Shown here piece after piece: positions 1 through 18,425 of a stretch of DNA of 64,000 nt; the stretch's first letter is position 1, and each line of letters begins with the position of its first letter. The translations under genes were made by a program, and so were the position numbers. Below the pieces are notes generated by a model. That model worked only from the letters and a program-made list of their open reading frames with translations, was not told where the DNA came from and did no database searches. This stretch comes from Escherichia phage EC150, in sequence record ON210137.1; one strand, given 5' to 3'.

Positions 1-156
1 CTTTATGAGGCAAAAGGACTTATTATTGATGGAAGGCAAATTGTCTTCACGGTAGTCAGCGGAATGCATTGGTTCGTGAAGCGTGATGTCGAGGGCCGTG
101 ACATGTTTGTCGCAGGATTTCCAGAAACAAGATTCCAATTGGAGAAGGTTAAATGA
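1..156 (+). CDS. hypothetical protein, C-terminal fragment (gene starts upstream of window)
   Basis: Frame-1 ORF open from window edge to TGA at 154-156; overlaps next start in ATGA arrangement. Confidence 0.4.
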   Translation, partial: LYEAKGLIIDGRQIVFTVVSGMHWFVKRDVEGRDMFVAGFPETRFQLEKVK

Positions 157-485
157 AATTGAAATGGTACGTGGACCCTGAGACGACAGGCTCATACAGG
201 TCATTCCAACGTCGCGGCTGGCCGATTTGTTACAGCGGCAATCCCGATAAAGAAGACTGCGAGATGCTCGCCGCGATAGTAAGTCTTAATCATGACGGCT
301 ATGAAGGCCACTACGCGAGAGCAACCAACCTTCGGCTCAAGGTGCGCATCCATTTCAAGGTCGCAGGCGAGGACCGCACCGGACTCTCCAAAGAAGAGTT
401 CAGCAGCATTGCCGAAGCAAAGGCATGGCTAAAGGCGTTCTACAAGGCCAATCCTAAATTTTATCCAACTAAGGGTGCATCATGA
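153..485 (+). CDS. hypothetical protein (110 aa)
   Basis: ORF track; GGAGAAGG Shine-Dalgarno 5-12 nt upstream of ATG 153. Confidence 0.5.
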   Translation: MKLKWYVDPETTGSYRSFQRRGWPICYSGNPDKEDCEMLAAIVSLNHDGYEGHYARATNLRLKVRIHFKVAGEDRTGLSKEEFSSIAEAKAWLKAFYKANPKFYPTKGAS

Positions 486-973
486 CTAACAAAACGCAAC
501 GCATCAATTTTGAAGGTAAAGAATACGAAATAGACGCTCGTGCAAGATTCGTTGCGCGCGATTCTAACGGAACCATCTGGGCGTATGAGGGAAAGCCTGC
601 ATGGAACGATTGGTGCGGCCAGTGGGGATATGCAATTGGCGATTCACTTTGGTGTAAGCAAATTGGTGATGGAAAGATGTTCAAAGAGAATAAACCATCA
701 TCACGTGATTCATTGAAGGAAGTCGAATCAATCAAAATCCAAGACCAAGCGCCATCGACAGATAACCAATACGCAGTCGGGCAACGTGACATCGAGCAAC
801 TCGACGAGGGCGGCTATTATACGCGCCACATCTATGCCATGACGCATGAAGGACTTTGCAGCAAGTCGGACATCGCCGCTGAACTGGCCCATCGTGACTT
901 ACAAATCGACCTTCTCAAGATAGAAGTGCAGAACTTACGAAACACCCTGTTAAATACTTGGAGCTTAAAATGA
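482..973 (+). CDS. hypothetical protein (163 aa)
   Basis: ORF track; ATGA start/stop overlap with upstream gene (translational coupling). Confidence 0.5.
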   Translation: MTNKTQRINFEGKEYEIDARARFVARDSNGTIWAYEGKPAWNDWCGQWGYAIGDSLWCKQIGDGKMFKENKPSSRDSLKEVESIKIQDQAPSTDNQYAVGQRDIEQLDEGGYYTRHIYAMTHEGLCSKSDIAAELAHRDLQIDLLKIEVQNLRNTLLNTWSLK

Positions 974-1395
974 TACAACGTTACGACCTGACATATGATG
1001 TGGTATCAGAAGATTGCTCCATCACTCCCGTTCCAGAGAGTCATGAAGGACGTTTTGTTGCATATGAGGACTATGCCGCGCTGGAAGCGAAATACAGTGA
1101 AGCGCAACGCGAGTTGGTTGCATTACGCTCACAGGTCCGTGATGCATCGGTGCTTGTTAAGCAGTTGCACGACGTTGTTGCTACTATAGGCGTGGATGAT
1201 GATGCGCCGAAGGAGGAAGCGTGGACCGTGTGGCTTGGTGGCGCGAATCCGGTGCCTGGGAAGATGGTTGAGTTTGAATTACTCAACGGTTATAAATCAA
1301 AAGAGGCCGTCCCTTCGGATAATTTGAACTGGGGTGCAGTGGCAAGCCCGACTGGCGCAAAGATTGTTGCTTATCGGGTCGTTAAGGAGGGGTGA
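970..1395 (+). CDS. hypothetical protein (about 141 aa)
   Basis: ORF track frame; ATG 970 overlaps upstream TGA 971-973; track start 958 is a TTG. Confidence 0.5.
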   Translation: MIQRYDLTYDVVSEDCSITPVPESHEGRFVAYEDYAALEAKYSEAQRELVALRSQVRDASVLVKQLHDVVATIGVDDDAPKEEAWTVWLGGANPVPGKMVEFELLNGYKSKEAVPSDNLNWGAVASPTGAKIVAYRVVKEG

Positions 1396-1928
1396 TGGGC
1401 GGCTTTTGGCGTAAAGCTAAATACTCTAAAGACTTGCATTACTTCTTGGATAATGAAGGCATAAGTATATGTGGTAGGTACAGAAGGGATAATGAATCAG
1501 CGTCGCAAAGTAATAAGGCTGAATGGTTACTCAAGGAAGAATGCAAAGTTTGCCGCAAACGTTTTTGTGACAAAACTAGCATAACTGATTACATAAAGGA
1601 GCTTAGAAAAAGATGTAAAAGCCCGCAAGAGTTTGCCATAGCTCTTTGGGATGATCACCCTGAGTTGAGAAGCGAATGGTTAAAGACTGATGCAATCAAT
1701 TATATCTTCAAATCGAAATACAGGACGACAGCAAGATATAAAATGGATGAAGCAGTAATTCAGAAGGTATTTTCTTATTGGAGGGATACAGTCGATATTG
1801 TGAAAATAAAGAAATACCAAAACGAAGTGCTGCTGGAATTGGAGAGGATTGGCTATAAAGTCACCAATAAAATGATAAAAGAAGAAATAAAAAGGAGAAC
1901 GGAAAAGGGACTGATGCCTAAGATATAG
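1395..1928 (+). CDS. hypothetical Cys-rich protein (CxxC...CxxC, putative zinc-binding), AT-rich gene
   Basis: ORF track; AGGAGG at 1386-1391; ATGA overlap with upstream gene; cysteine pairs CGRY / CKVCRKRFC in translation. Confidence 0.45.
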   Translation: MGGFWRKAKYSKDLHYFLDNEGISICGRYRRDNESASQSNKAEWLLKEECKVCRKRFCDKTSITDYIKELRKRCKSPQEFAIALWDDHPELRSEWLKTDAINYIFKSKYRTTARYKMDEAVIQKVFSYWRDTVDIVKIKKYQNEVLLELERIGYKVTNKMIKEEIKRRTEKGLMPKI

Positions 1929-2177
1929 TGAATAAACGAACACTGTTTACGTGTTTTGAAGAATGGAATGTGTGCAATGGGTCGCTTTATGCGGCCTTTT
2001 GTCGTTTGGGTCGTGTTTTGCGATGGAATAATTATGATGAGGTGTTTTATTTATTGATTGTGCGGAAATATTTAGAAATATATTTCATAGGTCGTGTCTA
2101 TTGGTCCGTGGTGTTTGTTAGATTATATCTATGGATTGAAATTTTAGTGTCGTGAAACGTGGTGTTTGAACACATTT

Positions 2178-2540
2178 GATACGCCTAAAATACGGCTAAA
2201 AATTAAGCGTATCATGGCTGCAGGCCGCGTCGTTCCTGGATTCTTCTTTTTAAAATTGGTACACCCTTACGTCATGATACGTCATGGTTTTTTATCCGTA
2301 TCAGTGTACAGCCCTTGCCGCGCCTGGCTTGTACATTAATCTTACGGATGATACGGATAAAACTGGGCATCGTTATATATAAAACTCCAAAAATAAATAA
2401 ACTCCATTTTAAAAACATTTATATTAATTTTTTTCATATCCTCATACTTATGTTAATTTATATATTTAACGTATCATCCGTAAGATATAAGTAAAAACAA
2501 AGACTTGCGGCAATACGGATGATACGTCATGATACGCTTC
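2178..2540. repeat. Repeat locus A: inverted GATACGG/CCGTATC-type repeats (CTTACGGATGATACGGATAAAA at 2341-2362; inverse CGTATCATCCGTAAG at 2470-2484) flanking a ~105 bp AT-rich core
   Basis: Read directly; further copies at 2178-2196, 2208-2218, 2269-2304, 2511-2537. Confidence 0.6.
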
Positions 2541-2763
2541 AACCAGCCAGCAGCGGCTAAGTCATTGATTTGCATAACAAGCGGCGAAAGGGATGGATTT
2601 CTTTTATACGTATCAAACAGTACACCACGCACCACGGTCCGCTATTCATTCAGTACTATGATTTGTGTACGTTTACAGCCAATTTGAACATCAATCTGCA
2701 CTTGAATATAATGTTCATTCATTGTATAATTCACACTATTAATTTGCACTATGGGATTTGCAC

Positions 2764-3238
2764 TATGAGTCAAGATTATGTAGCAATGCCTGAAGACTTT
2801 GAAGACCCGCGATTTGCAGAGCATAATCAGGCATTATTCGATGAGTTCATTGACCTTGTTATTCAGGGCCATGACATGCGCGCAGCTTTTGCACTAGTAT
2901 TTGGCATGGAGGTTGCGACCGATAACTACACTGGCCAGCGAGTCCTCTGCACGCAACGCAATCCGTACTACAAGATGCGCTACAAAAAGCGTATGGAAGA
3001 GATGCCATTGAAGGAATTGTGGAGCGTAAAGAGTTCCATCCACAATTTAGTGAAGCTTGTGCGTGATCCAGAAGTCGCGGCGTCAGCCAAGCTTAATGCC
3101 ATTCGTGAACTGAATATCATCTACGGCATCACGATGATTGATGAGAATGGCAATAGTAAAATGGGCCGTTCCATGGACGATTTCTACAAGGATTTTGGAG
3201 AGGCAGCCAAAGAGGGTGAGCAATTCTCCCGCCACTAG
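2764..3238 (+). CDS. hypothetical protein (158 aa)
   Basis: In-frame ATG 2764 (MSQDYVAMPEDFED...) inside track ORF 2570..3238; upstream extension starts at TTG and is low-complexity; start codon overlapped by an ATTTGCACTAT copy. Confidence 0.5.
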
Positions 3239-3258
3239 CCAATTTGCACTATAAAACG

Positions 3259-3291
3259 GCCCTAGAACACATTTTCTCCACTTCTAGGGCC
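3259..3291. terminator. Perfect 10-bp stem hairpin (GGCCCTAGAA / TTCTAGGGCC, 13-nt loop) between convergent genes
   Basis: Inverted repeat read directly; 20 nt after stop of CDS 2764..3238; weak U-tract on minus strand only. Confidence 0.45.
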
Positions 3292-3666
3292 ATCGGTAAT
3301 ACGACGGGGAAGGTTACAACCATAAACGCGTTAGAAAGTGTATTATTATAAGTCATCTTTTAGTCACTTTACGTAACAATTTACGACCTTCCGCCGTCCA
3401 GTCGAACGACTCCACCAGCAGATTTGCACTATAACCTAAGACGATGCGCCCTTTCTCGTTATCGACCCGCCAACAAGTCTCGAATAGCATTCGATTTGCA
3501 CTATTAACTATCGCCGCAACGCGCGCTGGGTAAGCGCAATTTGCACTATGGTCGTAAAGGGATAAGGTGCGACCACTTCCGATGGACAACGTAGCGATGA
3601 GAATAAGCGTATTCATAAGCCACCAATTTGCACTATGAAAAGCGACCCCGAAGGGCCGCCATTCGA

Positions 3667-4293
3667 TTAGATGATCTGGAATGTGTATGACTTGTTGCCG
3701 AACTCGAAGTTCAAGCGCCCAGCTTCCTTAAGCTTCATGCGGAAGCGAATGTGCTTGCTATCCGGTAATCCCAGCGCGATGAAAGCTACGCGGACCGATT
3801 TGAACTCGCCTACACCCTCGACCATAACGCCGTTACGGGTGAGACGCTTTTGCGCCACTTCCTTATTATCCCAACTTTTTGCAATGCCTTCGCTATTCGA
3901 ACGGCGATGGGAAGAAGTTCCATTTTGCACTACGCAATTTGCACTATCGTTTAGGCCGCTCTTAACGAAGGCTTCATACTCTTCGTCGGTCATCGCGTCG
4001 AGTTCTTCCTGAGTCGGCTCAGACTTTTTAACGACCGCACGCGCCTTATGCGTTTTTACATCGCTGGGCACTTCCTCGCGCGGCTTCGCGTCGGGAATGG
4101 GCGATTCGTTGGACGGCTCATCGAGCGCGTTCAAGGACTCGATTAACGCGATTACGCGAGTCTCGGCGGTCCGGCGGTCCGCGAACTTTTTAATCGGCTT
4201 CGAACCGGAATTTGCGTTGTAAAATGCAACGAGGTCGGCGGTCTTAGTTGCGATAACGTCGCCGCTAGTCGAGAAGCGATTTAAGCTAACCAT
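3667..4293 (-). CDS. hypothetical protein (208 aa)
   Basis: ORF track; long ORF; no recognised motif. Confidence 0.5.
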   Translation of the reverse strand: MVSLNRFSTSGDVIATKTADLVAFYNANSGSKPIKKFADRRTAETRVIALIESLNALDEPSNESPIPDAKPREEVPSDVKTHKARAVVKKSEPTQEELDAMTDEEYEAFVKSGLNDSANCVVQNGTSSHRRSNSEGIAKSWDNKEVAQKRLTRNGVMVEGVGEFKSVRVAFIALGLPDSKHIRFRMKLKEAGRLNFEFGNKSYTFQII

Positions 4294-4373
4294 AATAAAC
4301 TCCTATTTGTTAGGGCGCTAAGCGCGAAAGAATTTTATTAAAGCGCCGCGCACGACGCTCTTAAAATCCTCTC

Positions 4374-4658
4374 TTACGCTTCGACGAGGGAGAAGGTTTC
4401 AAATTCTTCTTCGCCCATAACGAGTAAAATATTCCCGATTTCGACCGCTTCGAAGAAGTATCCGTTAACGTTTACTTCGAAGGCTTCGCGGTCCGATTCC
4501 GGTAACGCCGCGTAAAGTTTAAAAGCCTCGGCGACCGTTACCCCACCCGCTTCGATAGTTTGGTCTACGTTCGCGGCGTAGACTTCGGATAAATTTTGTT
4601 TTACGCCGTAGTTCTCGACGATAGCGTTACGGATAGAAGAAACGTTAAGAATAGCCAT
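4374..4658 (-). CDS. small acidic protein, paralog family member 1 (94 aa)
   Basis: ORF track; shares EVYAANVDQTIE / VNVNGYFFEAVEIG blocks with CDS 5292..5582; conserved promoter and leader upstream. Confidence 0.6.
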   Translation of the reverse strand: MAILNVSSIRNAIVENYGVKQNLSEVYAANVDQTIEAGGVTVAEAFKLYAALPESDREAFEVNVNGYFFEAVEIGNILLVMGEEEFETFSLVEA

Positions 4659-4726
4659 TTTAAACTCCTAGTTGGGAGAGGCGTTAACGACCTATTCGTT
4701 AACTCATCCCGTCCCGATATGAGTAC

Positions 4727-4756
4727 ATTATAATATAGTGTAGAAAAAAGTAAAGC
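4727..4756 (-). promoter_or_regulatory. sigma70-like promoter TTTACT-16-TATAAT for CDS 4374..4658
   Basis: Reverse complement of 4727-4756 reads TTTACTTTTTTCTACACTATATTATAAT; same architecture as the two promoters below. Confidence 0.5.
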
Positions 4757-4798
4757 ACTTTTTCGATAAAAATGCGATAAATTATTTTATCTTTTTCC

Positions 4799-4826
4799 TT
4801 TACTTCTTCGTACACTCGCGTATACT
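4799..4826 (+). promoter_or_regulatory. sigma70-like promoter TTTACT-16-TATACT for CDS 4882..5184
   Basis: CCTTTACTTCTTCGTACACT...TATACT read directly; followed by TATATCGAGACGGG leader element. Confidence 0.5.
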
Positions 4827-4881
4827 TGTTTATATCGAGACGGGCGATGGCCTTCCTTCTACTAGCATCGGGAGTTTTATT

Positions 4882-5184
4882 ATGACTACTTTAATCTCTT
4901 CTATCCTTACTTACGACGAAGACCGTTTAACCGTTCGTTCTCTTATCGCCGCCGTTAACGCGGAACTAGAATCCACCATCATTAAGGTCCGCGCGGTCGC
5001 TTTCGTCGGCCTTTCCTTCGACGATATTAAGTATGCCGAACGTAGCGCCATCCGCTTCGCGAAGACCGACGACGAAGCCGTTACCCTTATCGAGACGGTT
5101 ACGCCGCGCGGCGAAGCGTTAATTATCGTCGAGTATATCGACGTAGAGGGCGATAAGGCTTATAAATATTTTATCGCAAAATAA
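4882..5184 (+). CDS. small protein, paralog cassette member (100 aa), distant relative of the other two
   Basis: ORF track; GGGAG Shine-Dalgarno; shares the promoter/leader element. Confidence 0.55.
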   Translation: MTTLISSILTYDEDRLTVRSLIAAVNAELESTIIKVRAVAFVGLSFDDIKYAERSAIRFAKTDDEAVTLIETVTPRGEALIIVEYIDVEGDKAYKYFIAK

Positions 5185-5196
5185 CGAAAAAGTGCT

Positions 5197-5224
5197 TTAC
5201 TTCTTCGTACACTAAGACTATAAT
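5197..5224 (+). promoter_or_regulatory. sigma70-like promoter TTTACT-16-TATAAT for CDS 5292..5582
   Basis: GCTTTACTTCTTCGTACACT...TATAAT read directly; leader shares ATATCGAGAGGGG, GAATAGGTCG and CTCCCAACTAGGAG with the leader of CDS 4374..4658. Confidence 0.5.
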
Positions 5225-5291
5225 GTTTTATATCGAGAGGGGAGAGGAAGCGAATAGGTCGCCTTCCCGCCCTCCCAACTAGGAGAATATT

Positions 5292-5582
5292 ATGATTACT
5301 TTATCCGCTATCCGTTCCGCTCGCGTCGAGACTTCCGAAAACTCTAACGTATTTGGCGAAACCTTAGAGAGCGTTTATCTCTCTAACGTCGACGCGACTA
5401 TCGAATCTATTTATGAGCCGATCAACTTCCTCGACCTTTACAAGTATCGCGACGAGGACATCGTATCATCCCGCGTAACTATCAACGGCTTCGTCTATAC
5501 GATTACCGAAATCGGCGGCGAATATATCGCGGTCCCGCAACTCGGCGGCGAAGTAACTTATTTTAAAATCGTCTCCTTATAA
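5292..5582 (+). CDS. small acidic protein, paralog family member 2 (96 aa)
   Basis: ORF track; AGGAG Shine-Dalgarno; paralog of CDS 4374..4658. Confidence 0.6.
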   Translation: MITLSAIRSARVETSENSNVFGETLESVYLSNVDATIESIYEPINFLDLYKYRDEDIVSSRVTINGFVYTITEIGGEYIAVPQLGGEVTYFKIVSL

Positions 5583-5602
5583 TACCCTTCCGTTACTAAT
5601 AG

Positions 5603-5628
5603 GCCGCGCTTAGTCGCGGCTTTTCTTC
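5603..5628 (+). terminator. rho-independent terminator (GCCGCG-CTTAGT-CGCGGC then TTTTCTT)
   Basis: GC hairpin followed by T-tract, 20 nt after stop of CDS 5292..5582. Confidence 0.6.
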
Positions 5629-5746
5629 GTCCCTATCCCGATGCGCGTCTACGCGAAAACTCCTTTATCCTTCCCTTCGTCGTCGCATAATCTTCTTCGA
5701 GATGCTCCTTAGTTCGCATAACAGGTATTACGTTAAATGGAGAACA

Positions 5747-5820
5747 TCGCGTAAGTCCTTGTTTTATATAGACACCTATATCGGACCGTTAGGGCGGGTC
5801 GCGTAAGTCGTTGTTTTATA
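5747..5820. repeat. 22-bp direct repeat pair TCGCGTAAGTC(C/G)TTGTTTTATA (5747-5768, 5799-5820)
   Basis: Read directly; one mismatch; non-coding region. Confidence 0.55.
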
Positions 5821-5945
5821 AAGGCGCAAAACTTTCCCTTCGTTCCGAACTAAAACGAGAAATGTGCCGACCCTTCGCCCGAAAATAGTACGTATGCGAA
5901 ATTACATGCATCTCGAATAATCCCTCCCGATATTATCCTACACGC

Positions 5946-6008
5946 AATCATTCGCTTTCGAATCATTATGCTTCATATTGTTATGCGTCGAATCATTCGC
6001 TTTCGAAT
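5946..6008. repeat. 18-bp perfect direct repeat pair AATCATTCGCTTTCGAAT (5946-5963, 5991-6008)
   Basis: Read directly; non-coding region. Confidence 0.55.
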
Positions 6009-6096
6009 TGTAACGCTGGAAACTGTAACGGCGATTGATTATTGCGTTCGTGTGGTTTTTATGGCATGGGTCTTTTGGTGCGTTTTGGTACTTGAT

Positions 6097-6210
6097 GAAA
6101 TTTGCAGTACACTAATCAAAATACGACACATTTGGTCCACTAACTTTTCAAAGAAAAAGTCCTAGACAGTACCGTACTATTTTGTACCCACAGGAAATTT
6201 GCAGTACACT
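6097..6210. repeat. 17-bp perfect direct repeat pair GAAATTTGCAGTACACT (6097-6113, 6194-6210), related to the ATTTGCACTAT motif
   Basis: Read directly; shares ATTTGCA core with the 2.7-3.9 kb array. Confidence 0.55.
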
Positions 6211-6280
6211 CCTGCGCGGCAGGCAAAACAAAGGGCCGCACTAAGCGACCCACGATTCACGGTTAAATCAGCAACACCCA

Positions 6281-6661
6281 CTATTCGCTCTTATGGGCAT
6301 CACCAAAGCCATCCGCAATCTGGCTGATCAATGATTCAATGGACACAGTTTTACCAATTGATCGAGCGGTAATAGCAAGCATATTATCAATCAAACCATG
6401 ATTGGATGCGTATGGTTCAGGTTTTGAATCATCTTCAGGACAACCAAAAAGCTGGTCGCGCAAACTTTCGAGAGAACGCTCAACATTTTCCAACTTCTCT
6501 TCTAAATCGGATTGGCGACGTAAAACCCATGTCAAGTCACGGTTGCCAACTTCCAATCCATCAGAATAGCAAGGTGGAGCGTCAATTTTGTTGCTGGAAC
6601 CAAAAGCAGTGCCGCTGCCTTTAGTATAAGTATGGCTCATAGAATCATTTTTATTTGACAT
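6281..6661 (-). CDS. hypothetical protein (126 aa)
   Basis: ORF track; no recognised motif. Confidence 0.5.
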   Translation of the reverse strand: MSNKNDSMSHTYTKGSGTAFGSSNKIDAPPCYSDGLEVGNRDLTWVLRRQSDLEEKLENVERSLESLRDQLFGCPEDDSKPEPYASNHGLIDNMLAITARSIGKTVSIESLISQIADGFGDAHKSE

Positions 6662-6735
6662 ATCATTACCTTTAATATTTGGTGATTAACAATAACTATA
6701 ATAAAGCCGCATAGCGCGGCATTCAAATCGATTTA

Positions 6736-6984
6736 TTAATTGTGACGATTGGATTCATCAATCGATACCAATTGTGCAGGGTTGCCGGATACCGTTGCGC
6801 CGATGATTCCCATTTGAGAGAAAAATTCTGAATAAACCTCTTTCCAGTACTTGCGCGCTGCTTTCTGGGCTTGACCTTTGCGCTTATAACTTTTGCCTTG
6901 AAAGATGAAGCGGTCTTTTGGAGCGTAATACTCCACCACACCTTCCAGCCATTGTAAGAATGCTACTGATTCATTTTTATTCAT
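6736..6984 (-). CDS. hypothetical protein (82 aa)
   Basis: ORF track. Confidence 0.45.
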   Translation of the reverse strand: MNKNESVAFLQWLEGVVEYYAPKDRFIFQGKSYKRKGQAQKAARKYWKEVYSEFFSQMGIIGATVSGNPAQLVSIDESNRHN

Positions 6985-6991
6985 GTTAACC

Positions 6992-7387
6992 TCAATATTT
7001 TAATAAGAAAGCGCCCAACCAACTTTCCTCAATCTCGCGGCCAGTAGCCACACGGTCGGTCTTTGATATGGGTCTGGATTCGCCACAGGGCAACCCGTCC
7101 TGTAGTTGTGTACTATTGCCAATCCTCACCAGAACCTTTCCATCAGGGTCGATATAAGCGCGACAACCCATGATTTCGAGTCGTTGTAGACACTGGCGAA
7201 TCGTTTTCAGCTTCTCACCGGACCTGATAGAGCGCGGTCGCGACCGCTGACCGTTCTTATTCACTTTGCGCTTTGCAACCGGAATATCATTGATGCGCTG
7301 CGACTTGGGTCGATAATAGGCTTCTTCGCCAGGAGTTGCACCTGGCGTCAGTTCGCGTTTGAGATCCTTTTCAATATCGATGATCAT
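6992..7387 (-). CDS. hypothetical basic protein (about 131 aa; track start 7459 possible)
   Basis: ORF track; internal ATG at 7387 preferred because the N-terminal extension is Cys-rich low-complexity. Confidence 0.4.
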   Translation of the reverse strand: MIIDIEKDLKRELTPGATPGEEAYYRPKSQRINDIPVAKRKVNKNGQRSRPRSIRSGEKLKTIRQCLQRLEIMGCRAYIDPDGKVLVRIGNSTQLQDGLPCGESRPISKTDRVATGREIEESWLGAFLLKY

Positions 7388-7488
7388 GATTATGCCGCTG
7401 CAGCGTAAACAATTGCATAAGCAATTCCAAACAGCGCAGCAATACATACCGTGCCCCAAAATGCAAAGCGTCGTGACTCTTTATCCAT

Positions 7489-7722
7489 TTATTTATCCCC
7501 CAACGTCCATGAATTAAACACTAATTTTGCCATTTCATCTTGTGAAACCACATTATAGTGCTTAGGCAAATCGCTTTCTGATAATACCTTCTGGGCTTCT
7601 TCTTTTGTCTCAAAGAGAGGGATGAAAAAGACCAAGCGGTTATCTTCAGGATCAATGCCGCAGATGACGTATTTTGGCAATGCTTTTGCTTTTTGAGTCT
7701 TATCAATATCTTCAAATTTCAT
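7489..7722 (-). CDS. hypothetical protein (about 77 aa)
   Basis: ORF track; start set at MKFEDIDK methionine. Confidence 0.4.
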   Translation of the reverse strand: MKFEDIDKTQKAKALPKYVICGIDPEDNRLVFFIPLFETKEEAQKVLSESDLPKHYNVVSQDEMAKLVFNSWTLGDK

Positions 7723-7777
7723 AATACACCTCACTTGTTAACGTATAATGAGTATAACTTAATCGAGCATAAAGTAA

Positions 7778-7797
7778 AGGCGCTTTTCAGCGCCTTG
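7778..7797 (-). terminator. hairpin (GGCGC-TTTTCA-GCGCC) downstream of the minus-strand tail fibre gene
   Basis: Palindrome 7 nt below the stop of CDS 7804..10119; moderately T-rich downstream on the minus strand. Confidence 0.5.
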
Positions 7798-7803
7798 AGT
7801 GAA

Positions 7804-10119
7804 TTATTTTGCTGATTTCAGCACGGCTATCTCTGCCTTGAGTTCATCAATCTGATCCATCAATGCGAGAATAGCCTCGTGGTGCAATGCCGCTGCAACG
7901 CCGTAAGTGTCAACTGACTTGATATCTTCGACAACAGTCCCATCCTTGAGTTCCGTGTTTGAATATTTCAAAGTTTTTACTGCGTCAGGAAATACACCTT
8001 CTACATCTTGAGCTATAAATCCGATGCCATTCGGTTTCTCTGACTTATCAAGGCGCTCCCAAGTCACACCCTTGATCAATCTCATCTTTCCTAACGGGTC
8101 GGAAATCCTTTGAATATTTGTTTTGACCCTCTCATCAGACGTGCTGACCCAGTTCCCTGCAGTAGCAGTACCATCAGGCATAAATTTGAAATCTGCTGCA
8201 GCGCCTTGCCCATTGTTTATGGATATTTGCGCGTGCATCAAATCAGTTCCAGTACCTCGAACGCCTCCGAATGTATAGCTGCCAGCATACCAATCCCCTG
8301 AAAAATATGATACATACCCAGGCGTTGACTGGTTGAAGTTTATCATCCTCATACCGTTGCTTTCATACGCTGAAACGCCTACTGAATTCAACGGTTGCAC
8401 AACAAGGTCTTTTGGTCTGAGATATGCATTAACATTCAGCGCCCCGTCTGTCCTTTCCGTACTAATTTGATTTATGGAGTTAGGGAAATAAAATGTGCCA
8501 TCTTGCGCAAACTTCCATTCTTGCACCCCATTAGATATCACAGCACCTTGTTCAGACGTTAATCCATCAATCTTACCGTATGCTTGCAAGAATGCTTGAT
8601 ACGCAATGTTGGTGCCAATTTTATATTCAGATTTTACACTGCCGCCACTGACAAGCGTTCCGGTTGCAGGTTTTACTGCGTCACCATTAATAACGCTCCA
8701 AGTCGTATTCGCAGCAGCAAATCCACCCGATGCACGAATCACCCAAACGCCTACAAAGTTACGACCCATTATTTCACTGTTTGAACGGCCATAAACCGGA
8801 CTTACTCGCGAAGCATCAAAACTCACCCTAATAACACCATTACCAGTTACCGGTTCTGGTGACAATGGTGTTTCTACCTGACCCGGTACAATAGCACCCG
8901 TCTGCCCGTAGGCGACGACGCCACCAATATCCCCGTAAATGTTTGGTGCAGCTGAATCAAACACAACACCATCAGCGTTGGAGTTTGCGGTGCCATTTCC
9001 TGCGCCGTCACCTCGTCCATAAAGAGCGGCTAATGAACCGACTTGAACGCCGTTTTTGTCGGGCACACGGAAAGTCGTTGAGCCATTACCAAGAGAATAC
9101 TTTCCGCGCTTTGTTGGGTCCGCAAGCCAATCCGCATCAGCAATAGGAGTCAGCATTTGAGCATATGCCCAAAGCTCAGGCCAGTCTGCGCGGTTAAGCA
9201 ATTGCCCGTCTGCAACAACTTCATATGGCTGGATGTAAGCACGGCTATCACGAAGATGAAAATCACCAACACCATAGTTCATTACACCGTTCATGTTCGG
9301 TCCAACGGTGCCAGTGTTGATAAGGTTTTCAACCCAACGTTTAGTCGCAGCATCATAATCATTCACAGGGTCACCAGCAAGCGGAGTTGGGCCTGTCGGT
9401 CGAATATTCAACCAAGCCTGCGCATTATCCCCTGATCCTGTGCCGCCCATGGAAGTGGGCACGATATTTTGATCAGCGACTTGTCCGAATCCAAAAGCAG
9501 ACTTCATGCCCTGAATAGTACTCTGCCCTGTGCCACCGTTTGCCACTGGTACTACATCAAGTTCGCTATAAACCTTTTTCCAAGGTGACCAAAAGTCGCC
9601 ATTAAATACCCTGTTGTATTCAGGGCCAACCGTTGCTGTGTATTTTTGTGAACAAGCATTTGCTGAAATTTGGATTACTTCCAATACTCCAGACGATAAG
9701 GTTGGGTAGTTCAAAGCAGGTGATGCTGATAGACTGTTCGGCTGGTAATATTGGCCAAACCATGAACCAGTCAAAGCATTGAGATTTATTCCGTTAGGAA
9801 TCTCTCCAAAGTTTCGGACAGTACCCGTCAAAGTCGCAGCAGTAGTTCGAATGGAAAGCATGTCGCCAGCCGCCCATGCACGCGCTGCAGTTCCTTCCTG
9901 TGCACGCTGCACGGTCAGGACGTTTCCAACAACGGCTGTTACTGTGACGATTTCGAATTGGAGGCCTGTCGCAGCGTCTACGATTGTCGCCACTACACGC
10001 TCGTTTGCAGCCAAGGTCGGAAATCCCGACCCTGAGCGAATTGTGATTGTGGTGTCTGAAGTCGTCGTTGGCTGAGCGAGCGCGACCTCAAAGTTGTTTT
10101 TGAATATTAGCCTTGGCAT
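7804..10119 (-). CDS. tail fibre / tailspike protein with C-terminal intramolecular chaperone (peptidase S74-type) domain
   Basis: 771 aa; C-terminus contains SDERVKTNI and GIGFIAQDVEGVFP, which I recognise as intramolecular chaperone motifs of phage tail spikes/fibres; Gly-rich central region. Confidence 0.75.
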   Translation of the reverse strand: MPRLIFKNNFEVALAQPTTTSDTTITIRSGSGFPTLAANERVVATIVDAATGLQFEIVTVTAVVGNVLTVQRAQEGTAARAWAAGDMLSIRTTAATLTGTVRNFGEIPNGINLNALTGSWFGQYYQPNSLSASPALNYPTLSSGVLEVIQISANACSQKYTATVGPEYNRVFNGDFWSPWKKVYSELDVVPVANGGTGQSTIQGMKSAFGFGQVADQNIVPTSMGGTGSGDNAQAWLNIRPTGPTPLAGDPVNDYDAATKRWVENLINTGTVGPNMNGVMNYGVGDFHLRDSRAYIQPYEVVADGQLLNRADWPELWAYAQMLTPIADADWLADPTKRGKYSLGNGSTTFRVPDKNGVQVGSLAALYGRGDGAGNGTANSNADGVVFDSAAPNIYGDIGGVVAYGQTGAIVPGQVETPLSPEPVTGNGVIRVSFDASRVSPVYGRSNSEIMGRNFVGVWVIRASGGFAAANTTWSVINGDAVKPATGTLVSGGSVKSEYKIGTNIAYQAFLQAYGKIDGLTSEQGAVISNGVQEWKFAQDGTFYFPNSINQISTERTDGALNVNAYLRPKDLVVQPLNSVGVSAYESNGMRMINFNQSTPGYVSYFSGDWYAGSYTFGGVRGTGTDLMHAQISINNGQGAAADFKFMPDGTATAGNWVSTSDERVKTNIQRISDPLGKMRLIKGVTWERLDKSEKPNGIGFIAQDVEGVFPDAVKTLKYSNTELKDGTVVEDIKSVDTYGVAAALHHEAILALMDQIDELKAEIAVLKSAK

Positions 10120-10157
10120 TTTACGGTCCTCGTTTTGTCGACAACCGTATTATAACC

Positions 10158-10499
10158 TTAATTTCTTTTGAGAGGAATATGGCGGTTGCTGTCATTATTT
10201 GGTTTAATAATGAGCATAAAAACGATTAGAAAGATGATGGCTGATATACTTAATTCAATCAGCGCGGCTTGAGATATAGATTGATCTTCATGATACTGCT
10301 TTTGCATTTCTGCTTTCTTCTGAGCGCAAACTTCAGGTGATATGTAATCGCCTTTTGAGTTGCCATAATAAATCTCGCCATTCTCAGAAATAAGCCTGCC
10401 GCAAATATCCGTGTCAGCCTTTGCGCTTGACATCATAATAACGGTGCCGATGATAGCGGCAATTGTCCAGATTAGCAGTTGTGATAAGGTATTATTCAT
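10158..10499 (-). CDS. membrane-anchored exported protein (N-terminal signal peptide, C-terminal transmembrane helix)
   Basis: ORF track; hydrophobic N- and C-termini; AAAGAGG Shine-Dalgarno on minus strand. Confidence 0.5.
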   Translation of the reverse strand: MNNTLSQLLIWTIAAIIGTVIMMSSAKADTDICGRLISENGEIYYGNSKGDYISPEVCAQKKAEMQKQYHEDQSISQAALIELSISAIIFLIVFMLIIKPNNDSNRHIPLKRN

Positions 10500-10694
10500 G
10501 ATAACCTCTTTAATTCCCTTCCCATATCGGGAAGGGTGAATATTATTTTACGCGAAAGAATAGGCGCGTGCCACACAGCGAGTCCCAACGGCCCTCACCA
10601 TCCCATATCGACCCAACACCAGCGGTGATTGGGCCAGCAGAATTGGCGGCATTGGCCCAGGCTAGACGTTTCAACTTCCAACTGCACCAACGAT

Positions 10695-10928
10695 TCACAT
10701 TTCATCTCCAGATTGCAAAACAAGTCCCGCATAGATGATTGCTAAAGCTAAAGGCGCACCACTTCCCGCCTCTCTGTTCTCTTTAATCTGAAGAGCATCC
10801 TTAAGGAATTGCAACTGAACGTTGAATTCATTTTCAATTCCAAGCACTCCAGACAATCCTTTTACAGAATCTGCATATGCCTTGTCTAGCACTTCTTTTG
10901 GTACTGTTAAAGTCAATTCATTTGCCAT
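10695..10928 (-). CDS. small protein with C-terminal hydrophobic segment
   Basis: ORF track; internal Met start chosen to limit overlap with upstream gene. Confidence 0.4.
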   Translation of the reverse strand: MANELTLTVPKEVLDKAYADSVKGLSGVLGIENEFNVQLQFLKDALQIKENREAGSGAPLALAIIYAGLVLQSGDEM

Positions 10929-11139
10929 TTTCTTTCCACTCCACGAATGTACTGCCACTTGTTTCTCTATTTAGCAGGTATCTGCCGCGCATTCCATGAA
11001 GGCTGAACTCAACCGTCGATGGATTAGATTTTGAAAGCCACATCACTTGACCGTCGAATGGTCCGCCGATGCATGTGTATTTGGCCTTTGGCTCACTCCT
11101 TTTGGGTCGCTTTGCCCGCTCTTTGATTGATAGTCTCAT
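10918..11139 (-). CDS. hypothetical small basic protein (73 aa)
   Basis: ORF track. Confidence 0.35.
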   Translation of the reverse strand: MRLSIKERAKRPKRSEPKAKYTCIGGPFDGQVMWLSKSNPSTVEFSLHGMRGRYLLNRETSGSTFVEWKENGK

Positions 11140-11354
11140 CAGTCTTCACCTTGAGATTCAAGACAAGTAAGGACAAGCCACGTCATCGGAAGAATCAAAA
11201 CCAGAGAAATAAGTGACCAAATGGACCAACACAAGATGACAGACTTGAATGTGTGAACGTCGCCAAACGTAGCAGTGAAACAAAATCCCATTACGAAAGC
11301 AATCGCTGTGGAGTGATTATCAATGGCTTTGATGGCGCGGTCGATGAGTTTCAT
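11139..11354 (-). CDS. small membrane protein with two predicted transmembrane helices (71 aa)
   Basis: ORF track; two hydrophobic stretches. Confidence 0.45.
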   Translation of the reverse strand: MKLIDRAIKAIDNHSTAIAFVMGFCFTATFGDVHTFKSVILCWSIWSLISLVLILPMTWLVLTCLESQGED

Positions 11355-11435
11355 ATTACCTCCGGTTTTGAGTTAATATGATTATAATGCAGAATTTCAG
11401 AAAGGCAAACTTTTTGTGAATTTAAATTAAAAAAA

Positions 11436-11456
11436 TGGCCAGAAATAATCTGGCCA
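11436..11456. other. palindromic hairpin TGGCCAG-AAATAAT-CTGGCCA flanked by A-tracts on both sides
   Basis: Read directly; T-tract follows on the minus strand; lies at the boundary between the minus-strand block and terL. Confidence 0.4.
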
Positions 11457-11502
11457 AAAAGATCACCCTTTATCCACTACTAAGCTGGAATCATAATTTT
11501 AC

Positions 11503-11532
11503 TTGATATAGCTGTCTCAAGCAAACTATAAT
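11503..11532 (+). promoter_or_regulatory. putative sigma70 promoter TTGATA-18-TATAAT upstream of terL
   Basis: Hexamers read directly; TATAAT ends 1 nt before ATG 11533, which argues for ATG 11566 as the real start. Confidence 0.4.
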
Positions 11533-11565
11533 ATGAATAAAATATTAACACATAATTGGAAAGTC

Positions 11566-12993
11566 ATGTACCAGTTGAATCCTGCTTTAAGAGAAGTCTG
11601 GAAGACGAAAGCGCGATACAAAGTCATATACGGCGGTCGTGCATCTTCCAAATCGCACGATGCCGCTGGTTTTGCTATTTATTTGGCGGCAAACTTCAAA
11701 TTAAAATTCCTTTGCGTTCGACAATTCCAGAACAAGATTTCTGAATCAGTATATACGCTATTAAAAGACAAAATAGAAATTTCTGATTTCAAAGACGAGT
11801 TCAACTTATTAAAGAACTCTATTGAACACAAAAGAACAAAATCTGAATTCTTATTTTACGGTATCGCACGCAACGTTGATGAAATCAAATCAACAGAAGG
11901 CGTTGATGTTCTTTGGCTTGAAGAAGCGCATGCGCTGACTGAAGAGCAGTGGGACATCATTGAGCCGACAATTCGTAAGGAAGGGTCCGAAATATGGATC
12001 ATATTTAACCCTGATGAAGAGGCTGATTTTGTCTACCAGAACTTTGTCATGCGACCGCCGAAGAATGCCATCGTTAAGAAGATTAACTGGCAAGACAACC
12101 CATTCTTGTCGCAAACAATGCTGGATGTTATCGCTGGCATGTATGAGCGCGACCCGAAAAAGGCAGAACACGTTTATGGCGGAGTACCGAAGACTGGCGG
12201 CGACAAGTCGGTAATCAACCGTGCATTCGTCAAGGCCGCGCTAAACCTCCACAAACACCCTACGCTGGGATGGAGCTTGTCAGGGTCTAACCGTATAGGC
12301 TTTGACGTGGCGGACGACGGCGACGACTTAAACGCCACAGCATTTGTCACTGGCAACGTATTGCGCGGCATCAAGACATGGGAAGGTCTGGAGGATGAAT
12401 TGCTTAAGTCCGCAAGCGGAGTCTGGAAAGACGCATTGACATTCGGCGCATCAATCACCTATGACGCCATCGGTGTTGGTGCATTTGCTGGTTCAAAATT
12501 TGATGAGCTTAATGAGTGTGCAATCCATGAAAATCCAACATTCCCAAGAATCGAATTTAATGCGTTCAACGCGCAAGGTGCTGTTGATGATCCTGATGAC
12601 GTTTTCCTTGAGTTACCACACGTTGAAATACTCAATAAAGACCATTTCGCAAACATAAAAGCGCAAAAATGGACTGAGATTGCCGAACGATTCAGAAAGA
12701 CATATGAGTATGCGACAGGGCAAGCCGTATATCCGACCGATGAGTTGATTTCCATCGACACAGACGGCATCCCAGAACTTGGTATTCCCGCTTGGTCTGC
12801 GGAAGAGATTGAGACGTTTCTTTTTGAGATGTCAGCGCCGCGCAAAGATACGTCTGTTCTTGGTAAGTTCAAAGTTGAATCGAAAAAAGATATGGCAAAG
12901 CGTGGAGTCAAATCGCCTAACAAAGCGGACGCAGCAATCATGGCATTGATGAAACCAATTGTTGCAGCATCCGGCTTCTTCTCTAACCTTTAA
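11566..12993 (+). CDS. terL: terminase large subunit
   Basis: Walker A-like YGGRASSKSHD near N-terminus, Walker B-like VLWLEEAH; start of morphogenesis module; GGAAAG Shine-Dalgarno before ATG 11566 (track start 11533 has none). Confidence 0.8.
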   Translation: MYQLNPALREVWKTKARYKVIYGGRASSKSHDAAGFAIYLAANFKLKFLCVRQFQNKISESVYTLLKDKIEISDFKDEFNLLKNSIEHKRTKSEFLFYGIARNVDEIKSTEGVDVLWLEEAHALTEEQWDIIEPTIRKEGSEIWIIFNPDEEADFVYQNFVMRPPKNAIVKKINWQDNPFLSQTMLDVIAGMYERDPKKAEHVYGGVPKTGGDKSVINRAFVKAALNLHKHPTLGWSLSGSNRIGFDVADDGDDLNATAFVTGNVLRGIKTWEGLEDELLKSASGVWKDALTFGASITYDAIGVGAFAGSKFDELNECAIHENPTFPRIEFNAFNAQGAVDDPDDVFLELPHVEILNKDHFANIKAQKWTEIAERFRKTYEYATGQAVYPTDELISIDTDGIPELGIPAWSAEEIETFLFEMSAPRKDTSVLGKFKVESKKDMAKRGVKSPNKADAAIMALMKPIVAASGFFSNL

Positions 12994-18149: not shown

Positions 18150-18425
18150 GCGTATAATGACGTATCATCCGTATCAAGTAAGTAGTTGTTTTCAAAAGAA
18201 TCTTACGGATGATACGGATGATACGCGTTGCCGCGATACTTTATAGGAATTCAAATAAATTAATTTAAAATTATATATCTAATTTAATTTTATTTTTTTA
18301 TAAACTCTTATATATGAAAAGTATCCGTATCATCCGTATCATCCGTAGCACACCAGTGATAGCGCGGCTTATACACCGATACGGATAAAAATACGCCTCA
18401 TTTTATCCGTATCATCCGTATCACA
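18150..18425. repeat. Repeat locus B: inverted arrays of GGATGATACG / CGTATCATCC units (CTTACGGATGATACGGATGATACG at 18202-18225; GTATCCGTATCATCCGTATCATCCGTA at 18321-18347) flanking a ~95 bp AT-rich core
   Basis: Read directly; shares the 17-mer CTTACGGATGATACGGA and TTTTATCCGTATCA with locus A at 2.3 kb. Confidence 0.6.

Follow-up and report, generated by a model that had tools for sequence, protein, structure and literature searches.

The DNA analysed here, referred to as the window, is a stretch of 64,000 nucleotides from Escherichia phage EC150 (sequence record ON210137.1), and the element under study is an array of the 11-mer ATTTGCACTAT that is repeated on one strand in and around terS, the gene for the small terminase subunit (TerS). 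The window belongs to a Wifcevirus, an E. coli/Shigella myovirus of ~68 kb, and 28 phage records match its positions 1900-6300 at 93-97% identity; the ~4 kb of the genome that lie outside the window were covered by checking phage Bas100. Very fast replication has been reported for Wifcevirus, and relatives are in therapeutic use (PMC11990801). The records of phages WFC, WFH and Mansfield, the ends of which are defined, all begin at window position 2406. A terminal repeat of ~3.7 kb was described for WFC and WFH (Korf et al., PMC6563267), and the annotation of Mansfield contains a direct terminal repeat (DTR) of 3673 bp predicted by PhageTerm. The array is found inside the left end of this repeat, with its first copy 337 bp and its last 1542 bp from position 2406, and it is present at both ends of the virion DNA and once per concatemer junction. 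Three genes share this stretch with the array, terS on the + strand and the genes for an 87-aa and a 208-aa protein on the - strand (Table 1).

Eight exact copies of ATTTGCACTAT were found in the window, all of them on the + strand and at the positions listed in a first-pass annotation made from the sequence (starts in Table 1). Dinucleotide-preserving shuffles yielded a mean of 0.05 and a maximum of 1 copy, in agreement with the expectation of well under one in 64 kb given there, and an unbiased k-mer count identified ATTTGCACTAT as the most repeated 10- to 11-mer of the window. No copies with one mismatch were present in the whole 64 kb, and matches with two mismatches were at chance overall (23 seen vs 27 expected), five of them being located in or near the array (2729, 2887, 3923, 6100 and 6197). 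The 9-mer core TTTGCACTA occurs ten times, in the eight exact copies and at 2888 and 3924, exclusively on the + strand with none on the - strand; the near-copy ATTTTGCACTAC that had been noted at 3922 is present as well. Four of the eight 11-mers are located in leader or intergenic DNA, three run antisense in the 87-aa gene and one lies in the 208-aa gene, while the core-only copies are found in terS (in sense orientation) and in the 208-aa gene, which makes six of the ten core copies intragenic. None is found in the structural or replication modules. The spacings within the array are 14, 131, 355, 180, 72, 45, 87, 297 and 14 bp, for which no consistent helical or codon phasing was apparent except for a weak quantum of ~13.5 bp at short range. 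A count over the genome and its relatives, as proposed in the first-pass annotation, confined the motif to 1.2 kb here, and the even, codon-driven distribution over the genome that had been considered as the alternative was not observed.

Table 1. Features of the array and its immediate surroundings (positions in the window)
Feature	Position	Strand	Remarks
Direct terminal repeat	2406..6156		right boundary ~6075 (Mansfield, PhageTerm) or 6156 (WFC record end)
Two overlapping sigma-70-like promoters into terS	2684..2730	+	TTGAAC-17-TATAAT and TTGAAT-17-TATAAT; consensus scan only
Whole array	2742..3947	+	8 exact ATTTGCACTAT and 2 core-only copies, single orientation
Copy 1	2742..2752	+	terS leader, ~5 nt past predicted start of second sigma-70-like promoter
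Copy 2	2756..2766	+	14 bp after copy 1; after GGGA ribosome-binding site (RBS); final two bases are AT of terS ATG
terS, small terminase subunit, 157 aa	2765..3238	+	phmmer, Foldseek, Mansfield annotation
Core-only copy TTTGCACTA	2888..2896	+	within terS, in-frame Phe-Ala-Leu; invariant in 15 Wifcevirus genomes; same place in L020
Copy 3	3242..3252	+	3 nt past terS stop; abuts bidirectional terminator hairpin
Conserved 87-aa protein	3353..3616	-	convergent with terS; signal-peptide-like N-terminus; three copies as Ser-Ala-Asn codons
Chi GCTGGTGG	3412..3419	-	orientation active for RecBCD entering from left genome end; abuts copy 4
Copy 4	3422..3432	+	antisense in 87-aa ORF (AGT-GCA-AAT, Ser-Ala-Asn); Chi complement immediately before; ATTCGCACTAT in six Wifcevirus genomes
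Copy 5	3494..3504	+	antisense in 87-aa ORF
Copy 6	3539..3549	+	antisense in 87-aa ORF
Copy 7	3626..3636	+	intergenic; between terminator of 208-aa gene and RBS of 87-aa gene (- strand); same syntenic position in L020, L021, L023
Conserved 208-aa protein, phrog_4730	3667..4293	-	beside terS in all relatives including Pbunavirus
Core-only copy, part of ATTTTGCACTAC	3924..3932	+	in 208-aa ORF, 14 bp ahead of copy 8; replaced in 3 of 15 Wifcevirus genomes
Copy 8	3937..3947	+	antisense in 208-aa ORF; replaced in 3 of 15 Wifcevirus genomes

The gene at the centre of the array had been assigned a start at 2764 in the first-pass annotation; its ATG is located at 2765-2767, and translation from 2764 contains 15 stops. 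Comparison of its product with the Protein Data Bank (PDB) by phmmer returned 7uxe (E=1.3e-32 over residues 3-147, ~38% identity), the decameric TerS of the Pbunavirus phage E217 (PMC9611059), and the homologous coding sequence (CDS) of Mansfield is annotated as terminase small subunit. In the AF2 model of the protein (pLDDT 68.8), helices at residues 22-33 and 38-46 precede a set of long helices and two strands, in line with the TerS fold of an N-terminal helical/HTH domain, oligomerisation helices and a C-terminal beta segment. A Foldseek search with this model gave 7uxe_A as the top match and the sole significant one (E=5.7e-6, probability 1.00), with weak further matches to the TerS proteins of PaP3, NV1 and Sf6. 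By sequence and predicted fold CDS 2765-3238 is thus a clear homologue of the solved TerS ring, its own oligomeric state being a prediction only. Copies 1 and 2 occupy roughly positions +5 to +30 of the predicted terS transcript, where they flank the GGGA RBS and overlap the ATG; given the near-consensus promoters at 2684-2730, these two copies fill the ~25-nt leader of terS.

The remainder of the locus had been regarded as low-coding, a description that does not hold for the two conserved genes on the - strand. Homologues of the 87-aa protein were detected in each of the related motif-bearing lineages at 33-58% identity, and we therefore consider 3353-3616 to be a real gene. Consequently, three of the four copies that had been placed in a gene-free stretch (3292-3666) lie within this gene, and only the copy at 3626 is intergenic as originally assumed. 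The N-terminus of the 87-aa protein is hydrophobic, and its conserved residues include Cys and Trp (…C.Y…CWR…DW…); the protein is encoded in all motif-bearing lineages, including L021 where no gene has been called, and is absent from Pbunavirus. The 208-aa protein had no informative match in PDB, Pfam or NCBIfam, and with a single-sequence model at pLDDT 37 it was set aside as a candidate for the binder of the word. Terminator hairpins are located 3' of both - strand genes.

To follow the word beyond Wifcevirus, six lineages that carry it were compared, namely the window, Pantoea phage PA1 (Kylevirus) and the lineages designated L020, L021, L022 and L023. Identity to the TerS of the window was 42% for PA1, ~38% for Pbunavirus and, in alignment, 44-64% for four metagenomic relatives (45-69% by BLASTP) and 24-31% for phages of Xanthomonas, Serratia/Erwinia, Salmonella and Aeromonas; a search for further related loci with a 3-sequence alignment returned already known genera only. 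The flanking DNA of PA1 and L020-L023 is too diverged to align, and nonetheless the core recurs on the terS strand, in a cluster that starts shortly ahead of terS and extends as far as the 3' end of the ~200-aa gene. Forward and reverse occurrences of TTYGCACTA were 10/0 in the window, 9/0 in PA1, 6/0 in L020, 5/1 in L021, 2/0 in L022 and 7/0 in L023, compared to ~0.03-0.05 expected, and add up to 39 forward and 1 reverse. In the complete genome of PA1, nine of the 12 copies are confined to a single stretch of 660 bp. The logo derived from the 39 copies, R-[A/T]-T-T-Y-G-C-A-C-T-A-[T>C,G], covers ~12 bp with no information outside and is asymmetric, in keeping with the earlier remark that the motif is not palindromic. 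When variants with one mismatch were counted, among which TCTGCACTA is recurrent, the arrays of the six lineages comprised 10, 9, 9, 4, 11 and 12 sites. All six are located in or beside terS with a start in the leader, a copy inside terS and a continuation downstream, and in all of them the spacing is irregular (14 to 608 bp), with close pairs ~13-14 bp apart or at multiples of this distance.

In terS the word specifies Phe-Ala-Leu, and in the - strand genes it corresponds to Ser-Ala-Asn (always encoded AGT-GCA-AAT) or Val-Val-Gln-Asn; the copies of PA1 fall into different reading frames, and intergenic copies exist as well. Since several frames, both coding strands and intergenic DNA are involved, these comparisons indicate that selection is acting on the nucleic acid rather than on a peptide. 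Among 15 Wifcevirus genomes 11 of the 88 motif columns vary, compared to 15-21% of the flank columns. The one recurrent variant within the genus, ATTCGCACTAT, agrees with the Y of the logo, and the pair at 3923/3937 is replaced in three of the 15 genomes. The array was not found in Pbunavirus, XcP1, Hera, PCSE1 or Gekk3-15 despite the same synteny; AATTTGGT, which was considered as a Pbunavirus counterpart of the word, is a promoter-like doublet. The conservation of the word across several phage genera is the reason why we regard the array as a functional docking array. That it is functional and read by a sequence-specific factor is strongly supported by the sequence comparisons, from which we infer that the word is bound by a protein.

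The physical end of the genome is an AT-rich block (2400-2499, 19% GC) located ~240 bp to the left of the first copy. The cut site is surrounded by inverted repeats that flank an AT-rich spacer of ~105-120 bp and differ in sequence by lineage. In the window their 27-nt arms (2329-2355 and 2470-2496, centre ~2412) bracket the left terminus at 2406, and equivalent inverted repeats sit upstream of terS in L020, L021, L023 and PA1. The arms are of the ACGGAT/GATACG type in the window, L020, L021 and L023, and of the AACCGTTA type in PA1. The arms in the window belong to a second repeat family, GATACGGAT/ATCCGTATC, which is present in both orientations in 2177-2617 and forms a second cluster in 18161-18423. 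The latter lies ahead of the head protease gene (18535) and combines copies in 9-bp tandem with an inverted repeat of 22 nt that is perfect (18204-18225 and 18326-18347). This family is a candidate for a terminase cut-site element and/or a regulator site common to terS and the head genes.

In addition to the word, Chi sites of one orientation are concentrated in the same stretch in several of these phages. Read as CCACCAGC, with Chi (GCTGGTGG) itself on the - strand, these sites cluster together with the word and share its orientation. In PA1, seven Chi sites active from the left end are located within 1.6 kb (L003:3861-5433); these are all the sites on that strand in the 69 kb genome, and one site in the opposite orientation is found elsewhere. 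Seven sites were counted in L021 (323-1824) and five in L023 (411-1836), mostly around terS, compared to four in Hera, two in Gekk3-15 and one in the window; the clustered loci include L006:3737-4833. Word and Chi do not always occur together, as Serratia phage Hera has Chi without the word and L020 the word without Chi. By the orientation rule for RecBCD restated in PMC12315714, these sites are active for entry from the left end; terminal Chi clusters were already known in P1 and some lambdoid phages such as LLS (PMC12315714), so that terminal clustering in itself is not new. By analogy to the proposals for P1 and LLS, the cluster fits a role in end protection or in Chi-stimulated concatemer formation via the DTR (PMC12315714). 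The presence of an oriented Chi cluster shows that the stretch is organised relative to the nearby left end. These oriented, interleaved Chi sites, the left end of the DTR and the adjacent small terminase gene form the context that the first-pass annotation had missed.

From these features, R-W-TTYGCACTA-T may be the site of a putative protein-recognition array belonging to the packaging/genome-end module, with TerS as the likeliest reader, an interpretation that we put forward tentatively as possible rather than probable. The roughly ten co-oriented copies would then be dispersed docking sites for a sequence-specific DNA-binding protein, and this protein would be the ring oligomer of TerS (decameric in the solved homologue) that is encoded at the centre of the array. 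TerS rings would nucleate on these sites in replicated concatemers, where their binding would mark the single DTR copy at each genome junction and lend it direction. TerL, encoded 8 kb away, would be recruited to cut at the left boundary (2406) and to package in the right direction, while the copies in the leader and at the start codon would allow TerS to limit its own synthesis. The array, its polarity, its place within the DTR, the assignment of the central gene to TerS and the conservation at the DNA level are established by the analysis; in the scheme itself we infer that a protein binds the word, that this protein is TerS, and the whole of recruitment and autoregulation.

Several observations argue for TerS as the reader. 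Terminase recognition sites are usually located in or beside terS, as in lambda (cosB/Nu1), SPP1 (pacL/pacR/gene 1), P22, Sf6 and T4, and the array is centred on terS in six of six lineages. Its placement within the DTR, 337-1542 bp from the left end at 2406, would fit as well. The asymmetric logo of ~12 bp has the footprint expected for one domain of the helix-turn-helix (HTH) type, and the spacing of close pairs (13-14 bp) together with the roughly ten sites would loosely fit neighbouring subunits of a ring. R65 and K70, within the invariant TerS loop R-N-P-Y-Y/F-K, are present in seven of seven TerS proteins from motif-bearing lineages and in none of five from lineages without the word. Two copies are located in the terS leader immediately downstream of the predicted promoters, and excess TerS is harmful for E217 according to a review (PMC9611059).

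A considerable number of findings weigh against this interpretation. The word is constant across TerS proteins that are 42-64% identical and in which the predicted HTH helix 3 (residues 38-46) varies freely, a combination that argues against TerS because a co-evolving reader would normally pull its site along. Co-variation of the site with the DNA-binding domain of TerS was not observed, and only the R65/K70 loop tracks the word. Divergence of TerS also fails to separate lineages with and without the array (PA1 vs Pbunavirus PS44 43%, PA1 vs the window 42%), and Pbunavirus lacks the array despite the same synteny. The inverted repeats around the AT-rich spacer, in contrast, bracket the cut site and co-vary by lineage, which makes this end element a rival candidate for the true terminase site. 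The array extends over 0.7-1.2 kb, and known pac and cosB sites are much smaller, at 200 bp or less. Constraint within the genus is modest, as reflected by the 11 varying motif columns out of 88, and one pair of copies is dispensable. Finally, TerS of E217 had no appreciable DNA binding in vitro (PMC9611059).

Of the four roles suggested in the first-pass annotation (iteron-type origin, operator array, partition site and phage-specific promoter element), what has been retained is recognition by a sequence-specific factor, while promoter and partition site are effectively excluded. An alternative to recognition by the terminase is an operator array, through which a transcriptional regulator of phage or host origin, or TerS acting as a repressor only, would shut off or time the expression of the left DTR. 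Binding would take place at the terS leader and beside the RBS of the 87-aa gene, with the internal sites adding cooperativity. The location of copies 1 and 2 directly downstream of two near-consensus sigma-70 promoters fits such a role, as do the asymmetric, footprint-sized logo and the presence of a copy 2 nt upstream of the RBS of the small - strand gene in four lineages. We nevertheless consider it doubtful, since overlap with leader and start codon was only observed in Wifcevirus and L020, and the nearest copies are 33-100 nt from the start codon in the more distant L021, L022, L023 and PA1. In addition, most copies are intragenic and distant from promoters, and repression does not require a strict single orientation over 1.2 kb. 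No regulator gene was recognised within the terminal repeat; the "transcriptional regulator" annotated in ECML-117 is a small ORF without conservation and was discarded. A translational variant, in which the word in + strand RNA at the terS start would pair with the word in - strand RNA, was rejected because the start-codon overlap is not kept beyond Wifcevirus and L020.

A role in replication, in which the copies would be loading sites for an initiator or the phage primase-helicase (60221-61891) and a dispersed relative of an iteron origin, also appears rather unlikely. These sites would lie where the left end, once processed at Chi, enters a second copy of the DTR by strand invasion and primes recombination-dependent replication. 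When viral contigs were scanned for pairs of the core at short distance (first 120 loci), many arrays with a period of 21-24 bp were encountered, and in at least six unrelated contigs such iterons with TTTGCACTA as their core lay inside initiator genes (HTH_36, DnaD_N, Phage_rep_O, Phg_2220_C) by AT-rich DNA, once with a DnaA box. The copies in the window resemble these iterons in being asymmetric and directly repeated; on the circular map the array follows shortly after the replication genes, and the co-clustering oriented Chi sites could contribute, as Chi-stimulated invasion can prime replication (PMC12315714). However, scrambled 9-mers also yielded iteron-like arrays at 3 of 62 and 6 of 120 loci compared to 13 of 120 for the real word; TTTGCACTA may be a recurrent iteron core, but with an enrichment of at most 2-4 fold a core in common with iterons counts as weak evidence. 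The iteron-type origin proposed earlier shares its 9-mer with iterons elsewhere but lacks regular spacing (14-608 bp, no helical phasing), an initiator and DnaA boxes (no TTWTNCACA within 2-6.5 kb). A profile of the iteron-binding winged helix, run against ORFs from all six frames of the window and of the ~4 kb of Bas100 beyond it, had no match (best E=0.38 in the window), and the candidate ORFs were without a Pfam match. Apart from the genome terminus, ~240 bp left of the first copy, there is no AT-rich element, and Pbunavirus has the same primases and no array. The word is also not a DnaA box itself, as ATTTGCACT departs from TTWTNCACA at the last position in every case and at the first in most, and has extra invariant bases.

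The iteron contigs, which originate from IMG/VR (L076:7455-7553, L061:3456-3531, L114, L241, L090 and L234), carry three to five iterons each. Owing to the 21-24 bp period these iterons alternate between the Val-Val-Gln-Asn and the Gly-Ser-Ala-Asn/Lys frames, and one subfamily contains the palindrome GTGCA-N5-TGCAC. Other viral contigs (L169:7624-8154, also L162, L230, L190 and L178) have a period of 66 bp with a repeat of ~36 nt (…CTATACTGGTGCGATTTTGCACTAGTCTAAAAC) and unique spacers of ~30 nt; they look like CRISPR arrays in which the 9-mer is present by coincidence.

The strict polarity would also be expected for a signal of the Chi or KOPS type that is read by a machine translocating from the left end and works with Chi on protection or processing of this end. 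Possible readers include a helicase-nuclease, of the host or of the phage, or the packaging motor when it terminates, as at cosQ of lambda. The copies have a near-strict orientation relative to the nearby end (39 forward vs 1 reverse), are interleaved and co-oriented with Chi, itself clustered only here, and have the dispersed irregular spacing typical of such signals; the constancy of the word while neighbouring phage proteins diverged is what a conserved host reader would produce. We consider this role unlikely. By our estimate the adjacency of word and Chi is not clearly above the expectation from site density, Hera and L020 each have one without the other, and we know of no enterobacterial translocase that recognises the word. 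Still less likely is its stronger form, according to which the word would be a previously unrecognised polar control sequence with a conserved machine tracking from the incoming or newly cut left end as its reader rather than a co-evolving phage protein. If true, the polar word and Chi together would protect the left end and make it proficient in recombination and replication, so that it could seed concatemers, and this would explain the invariance of the word next to phage proteins that have all diverged, its 39/40 orientation and its irregular spacing.

It is very improbable that the word is a phage-specific promoter or an element of one. It superficially resembles CACTAT, the -7 to -2 part of T7/SP6-type promoters, contains a -10-like (C/T)ATAGT on the - strand, and matches 8 of 10 positions of TTTGCTTTA, the consensus of the T4 MotA box. 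However, Pfam, PHROGs and NCBIfam searches of the ORFs tested, many small ORFs being unannotated, did not reveal a single-subunit RNA polymerase, a sigma factor or a protein of the MotA type, and the same was true for a phage RNA polymerase or sigma factor among ~30 of the larger ORFs compared to PHROGs. A conserved -10 or -35 partner is missing at any fixed distance, the flanks are without information, and conservation of the A that would be critical at -11 reaches only 62%. No copies occur in the remaining 60 kb, where the middle and late genes lie, and those present are not located upstream of co-oriented genes; a start site inside the motif would fall within the RBS of the gene served, with the 2756 copy overlapping the terS ATG. 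Identification as a T7/SP6-like promoter or MotA box was accordingly rejected (no matching polymerase or factor recognised, no -10 element), as were a sigma-70 promoter (no partner hexamer, uninformative flanks) and a sigma-54 promoter with TTGCA at -12 (no GG at -24). A partition site was dismissed in view of the asymmetry of the word (parS-type sites being usually palindromic), the virulent nature and linear DNA of the phage, and the failure to find ParA/ParB among the annotated ORFs in a search that was not exhaustive. Lastly, the possibility that the copies have no function of their own and arose by chance, by recent local duplication (as the two 14-bp doublets might suggest) or as by-product of a repeated peptide (several copies encode Ser-Ala-Asn at homologous positions of the small protein) is negligible in view of a chance expectation of 0.05, unrelated copy flanks that speak against duplicated segments, AGT-GCA-AAT codons fixed across lineages with only 33-58% protein identity, and further copies that lie between genes, in different frames and on the opposite coding strand, which rule out a peptide-driven repeat.

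Outside the array, the following features of the genome were noted. TerL is encoded at 11533-12993, followed by the portal, protease and capsid genes, and the replication genes are located at 41-62 kb. The gap of 8.3 kb between terS and terL is filled by the rest of the DTR and a tail-fibre gene on the - strand (7804-10119), whereas in Pbunavirus PS44 the two genes are merely 1.3 kb apart; the "58 kb apart" quoted for terS and terL of E217 probably reflects where the linear record was opened. No tRNAs were found, and positions 1-12000 had no Rfam match for RNA genes at permissive E-values, so that a known RNA was excluded as the identity of the array. By eye, the central DTR (3250-5900) is richer in CG dinucleotides (…TTCGACG…, …CGCG…) than its flanks, which suggests a different origin or codon usage. 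Three sigma-70-like promoters at 4727-4754 (-), 4799-4826 (+) and 5196-5224 (+), all with the extended consensus GTGCTTTACTTCTTCGTACACT...TATAAT, drive small divergent genes in mid-DTR (94, 100 and 96 aa) that have no family matches, a layout like that of the early/host-takeover genes in the terminal repeats of T5 and SPO1.

The right boundary of the DTR is accompanied by repeats of its own. The 17-mer GAAATTTGCAGTACACT is present twice on the + strand, at 6097-6113 and 6194-6210, where the first-pass annotation had recorded it as a relative of the 11-mer. Relative to the boundary in Mansfield (~6075) both copies lie to the right, and the WFC record end (6156) falls between them. It is kept in Wifcevirus and absent from L020, L021, L022 and PA1, and as a different, longer and Wifcevirus-only word it was removed from the family. 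Just right of the DTR, Mansfield (L001:3843-3878) has five to six copies of the 7-bp tandem repeat CGACCCA, of which the window contains one unit at the corresponding place (~6249).

Compared to known systems, the array can be grouped, as a variant, with the arrays of short recognition repeats that occur at the packaging regions and ends of phage genomes. In cosB of lambda gpNu1 binds to R1-R3 just upstream of the TerS gene, in SPP1 G1P binds to the pacL/pacR boxes, and in P1 PacA binds to the hexamer clusters of pac; these sites are compact (~200 bp or less) with three to seven copies next to the cut. Like the array they consist of multiple short copies of one word by the small-terminase gene, with information carried by the orientation. 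Unlike them, the array is near the mapped left end but farther from it and wider, with ~10 copies over 0.7-1.2 kb that start 337 bp from the end, mostly in three genes and within a long DTR, its word does not co-vary with the HTH of TerS, and binding by TerS is putative here. T7 reportedly has arrays of imperfect 7-bp direct repeats, the SRL and SRR of Dunn and Studier (1983), which flank its terminal repeat. They resemble the array as short direct repeats of one orientation at the DTR region and are suspected to act in concatemer processing or packaging, but are tandem, contiguous, imperfect, non-coding and outside the DTR, in contrast to the exact, dispersed copies inside the DTR and in genes. 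Iteron origins in phage initiator genes of the lambda O type share the 9-mer core, the asymmetric direct repeats, the embedding in coding sequence and the peptide footprints (Val-Val-Gln-Asn and Ser-Ala-Asn/Lys) with the array, but have three to five copies at a strict period of 21-24 bp in one initiator gene, whereas the array is irregular and has terS as its central gene. The terminal Chi clusters of P1 and LLS likewise represent a polar word of one orientation near a DNA end (PMC12315714); Chi, however, is read by the host RecBCD, is abundant in the host chromosome and differs in sequence from the array word. E217 shares the terS homologue with the same fold and the same order of terS and a ~200-aa gene at the genome end, but Pbunavirus genomes are without the array and specific DNA binding of its TerS in vitro was not found (PMC9611059). 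A full-text literature search for the word returned no relevant paper, and the Wifcevirus literature examined is silent on it. Within this kind, the array is distinguished by its dispersal over ~1 kb, strict polarity, embedding in three genes, invariance across genera and interleaving with Chi.

The array bears on how phages with long DTRs mark their ends and on what their small terminases recognise. TerS of E217 is the only solved structure of its family and no DNA target has been found for it, and the array offers a sharply delimited and conserved candidate target of ~12 bp in ~10 copies. Should the reader not be TerS, the array would still provide a handle on an unknown DNA-protein system that acts at a DNA end alongside Chi. 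Knowledge of the packaging signal would aid the engineering of Wifcevirus phages and the assessment of their transduction risk.

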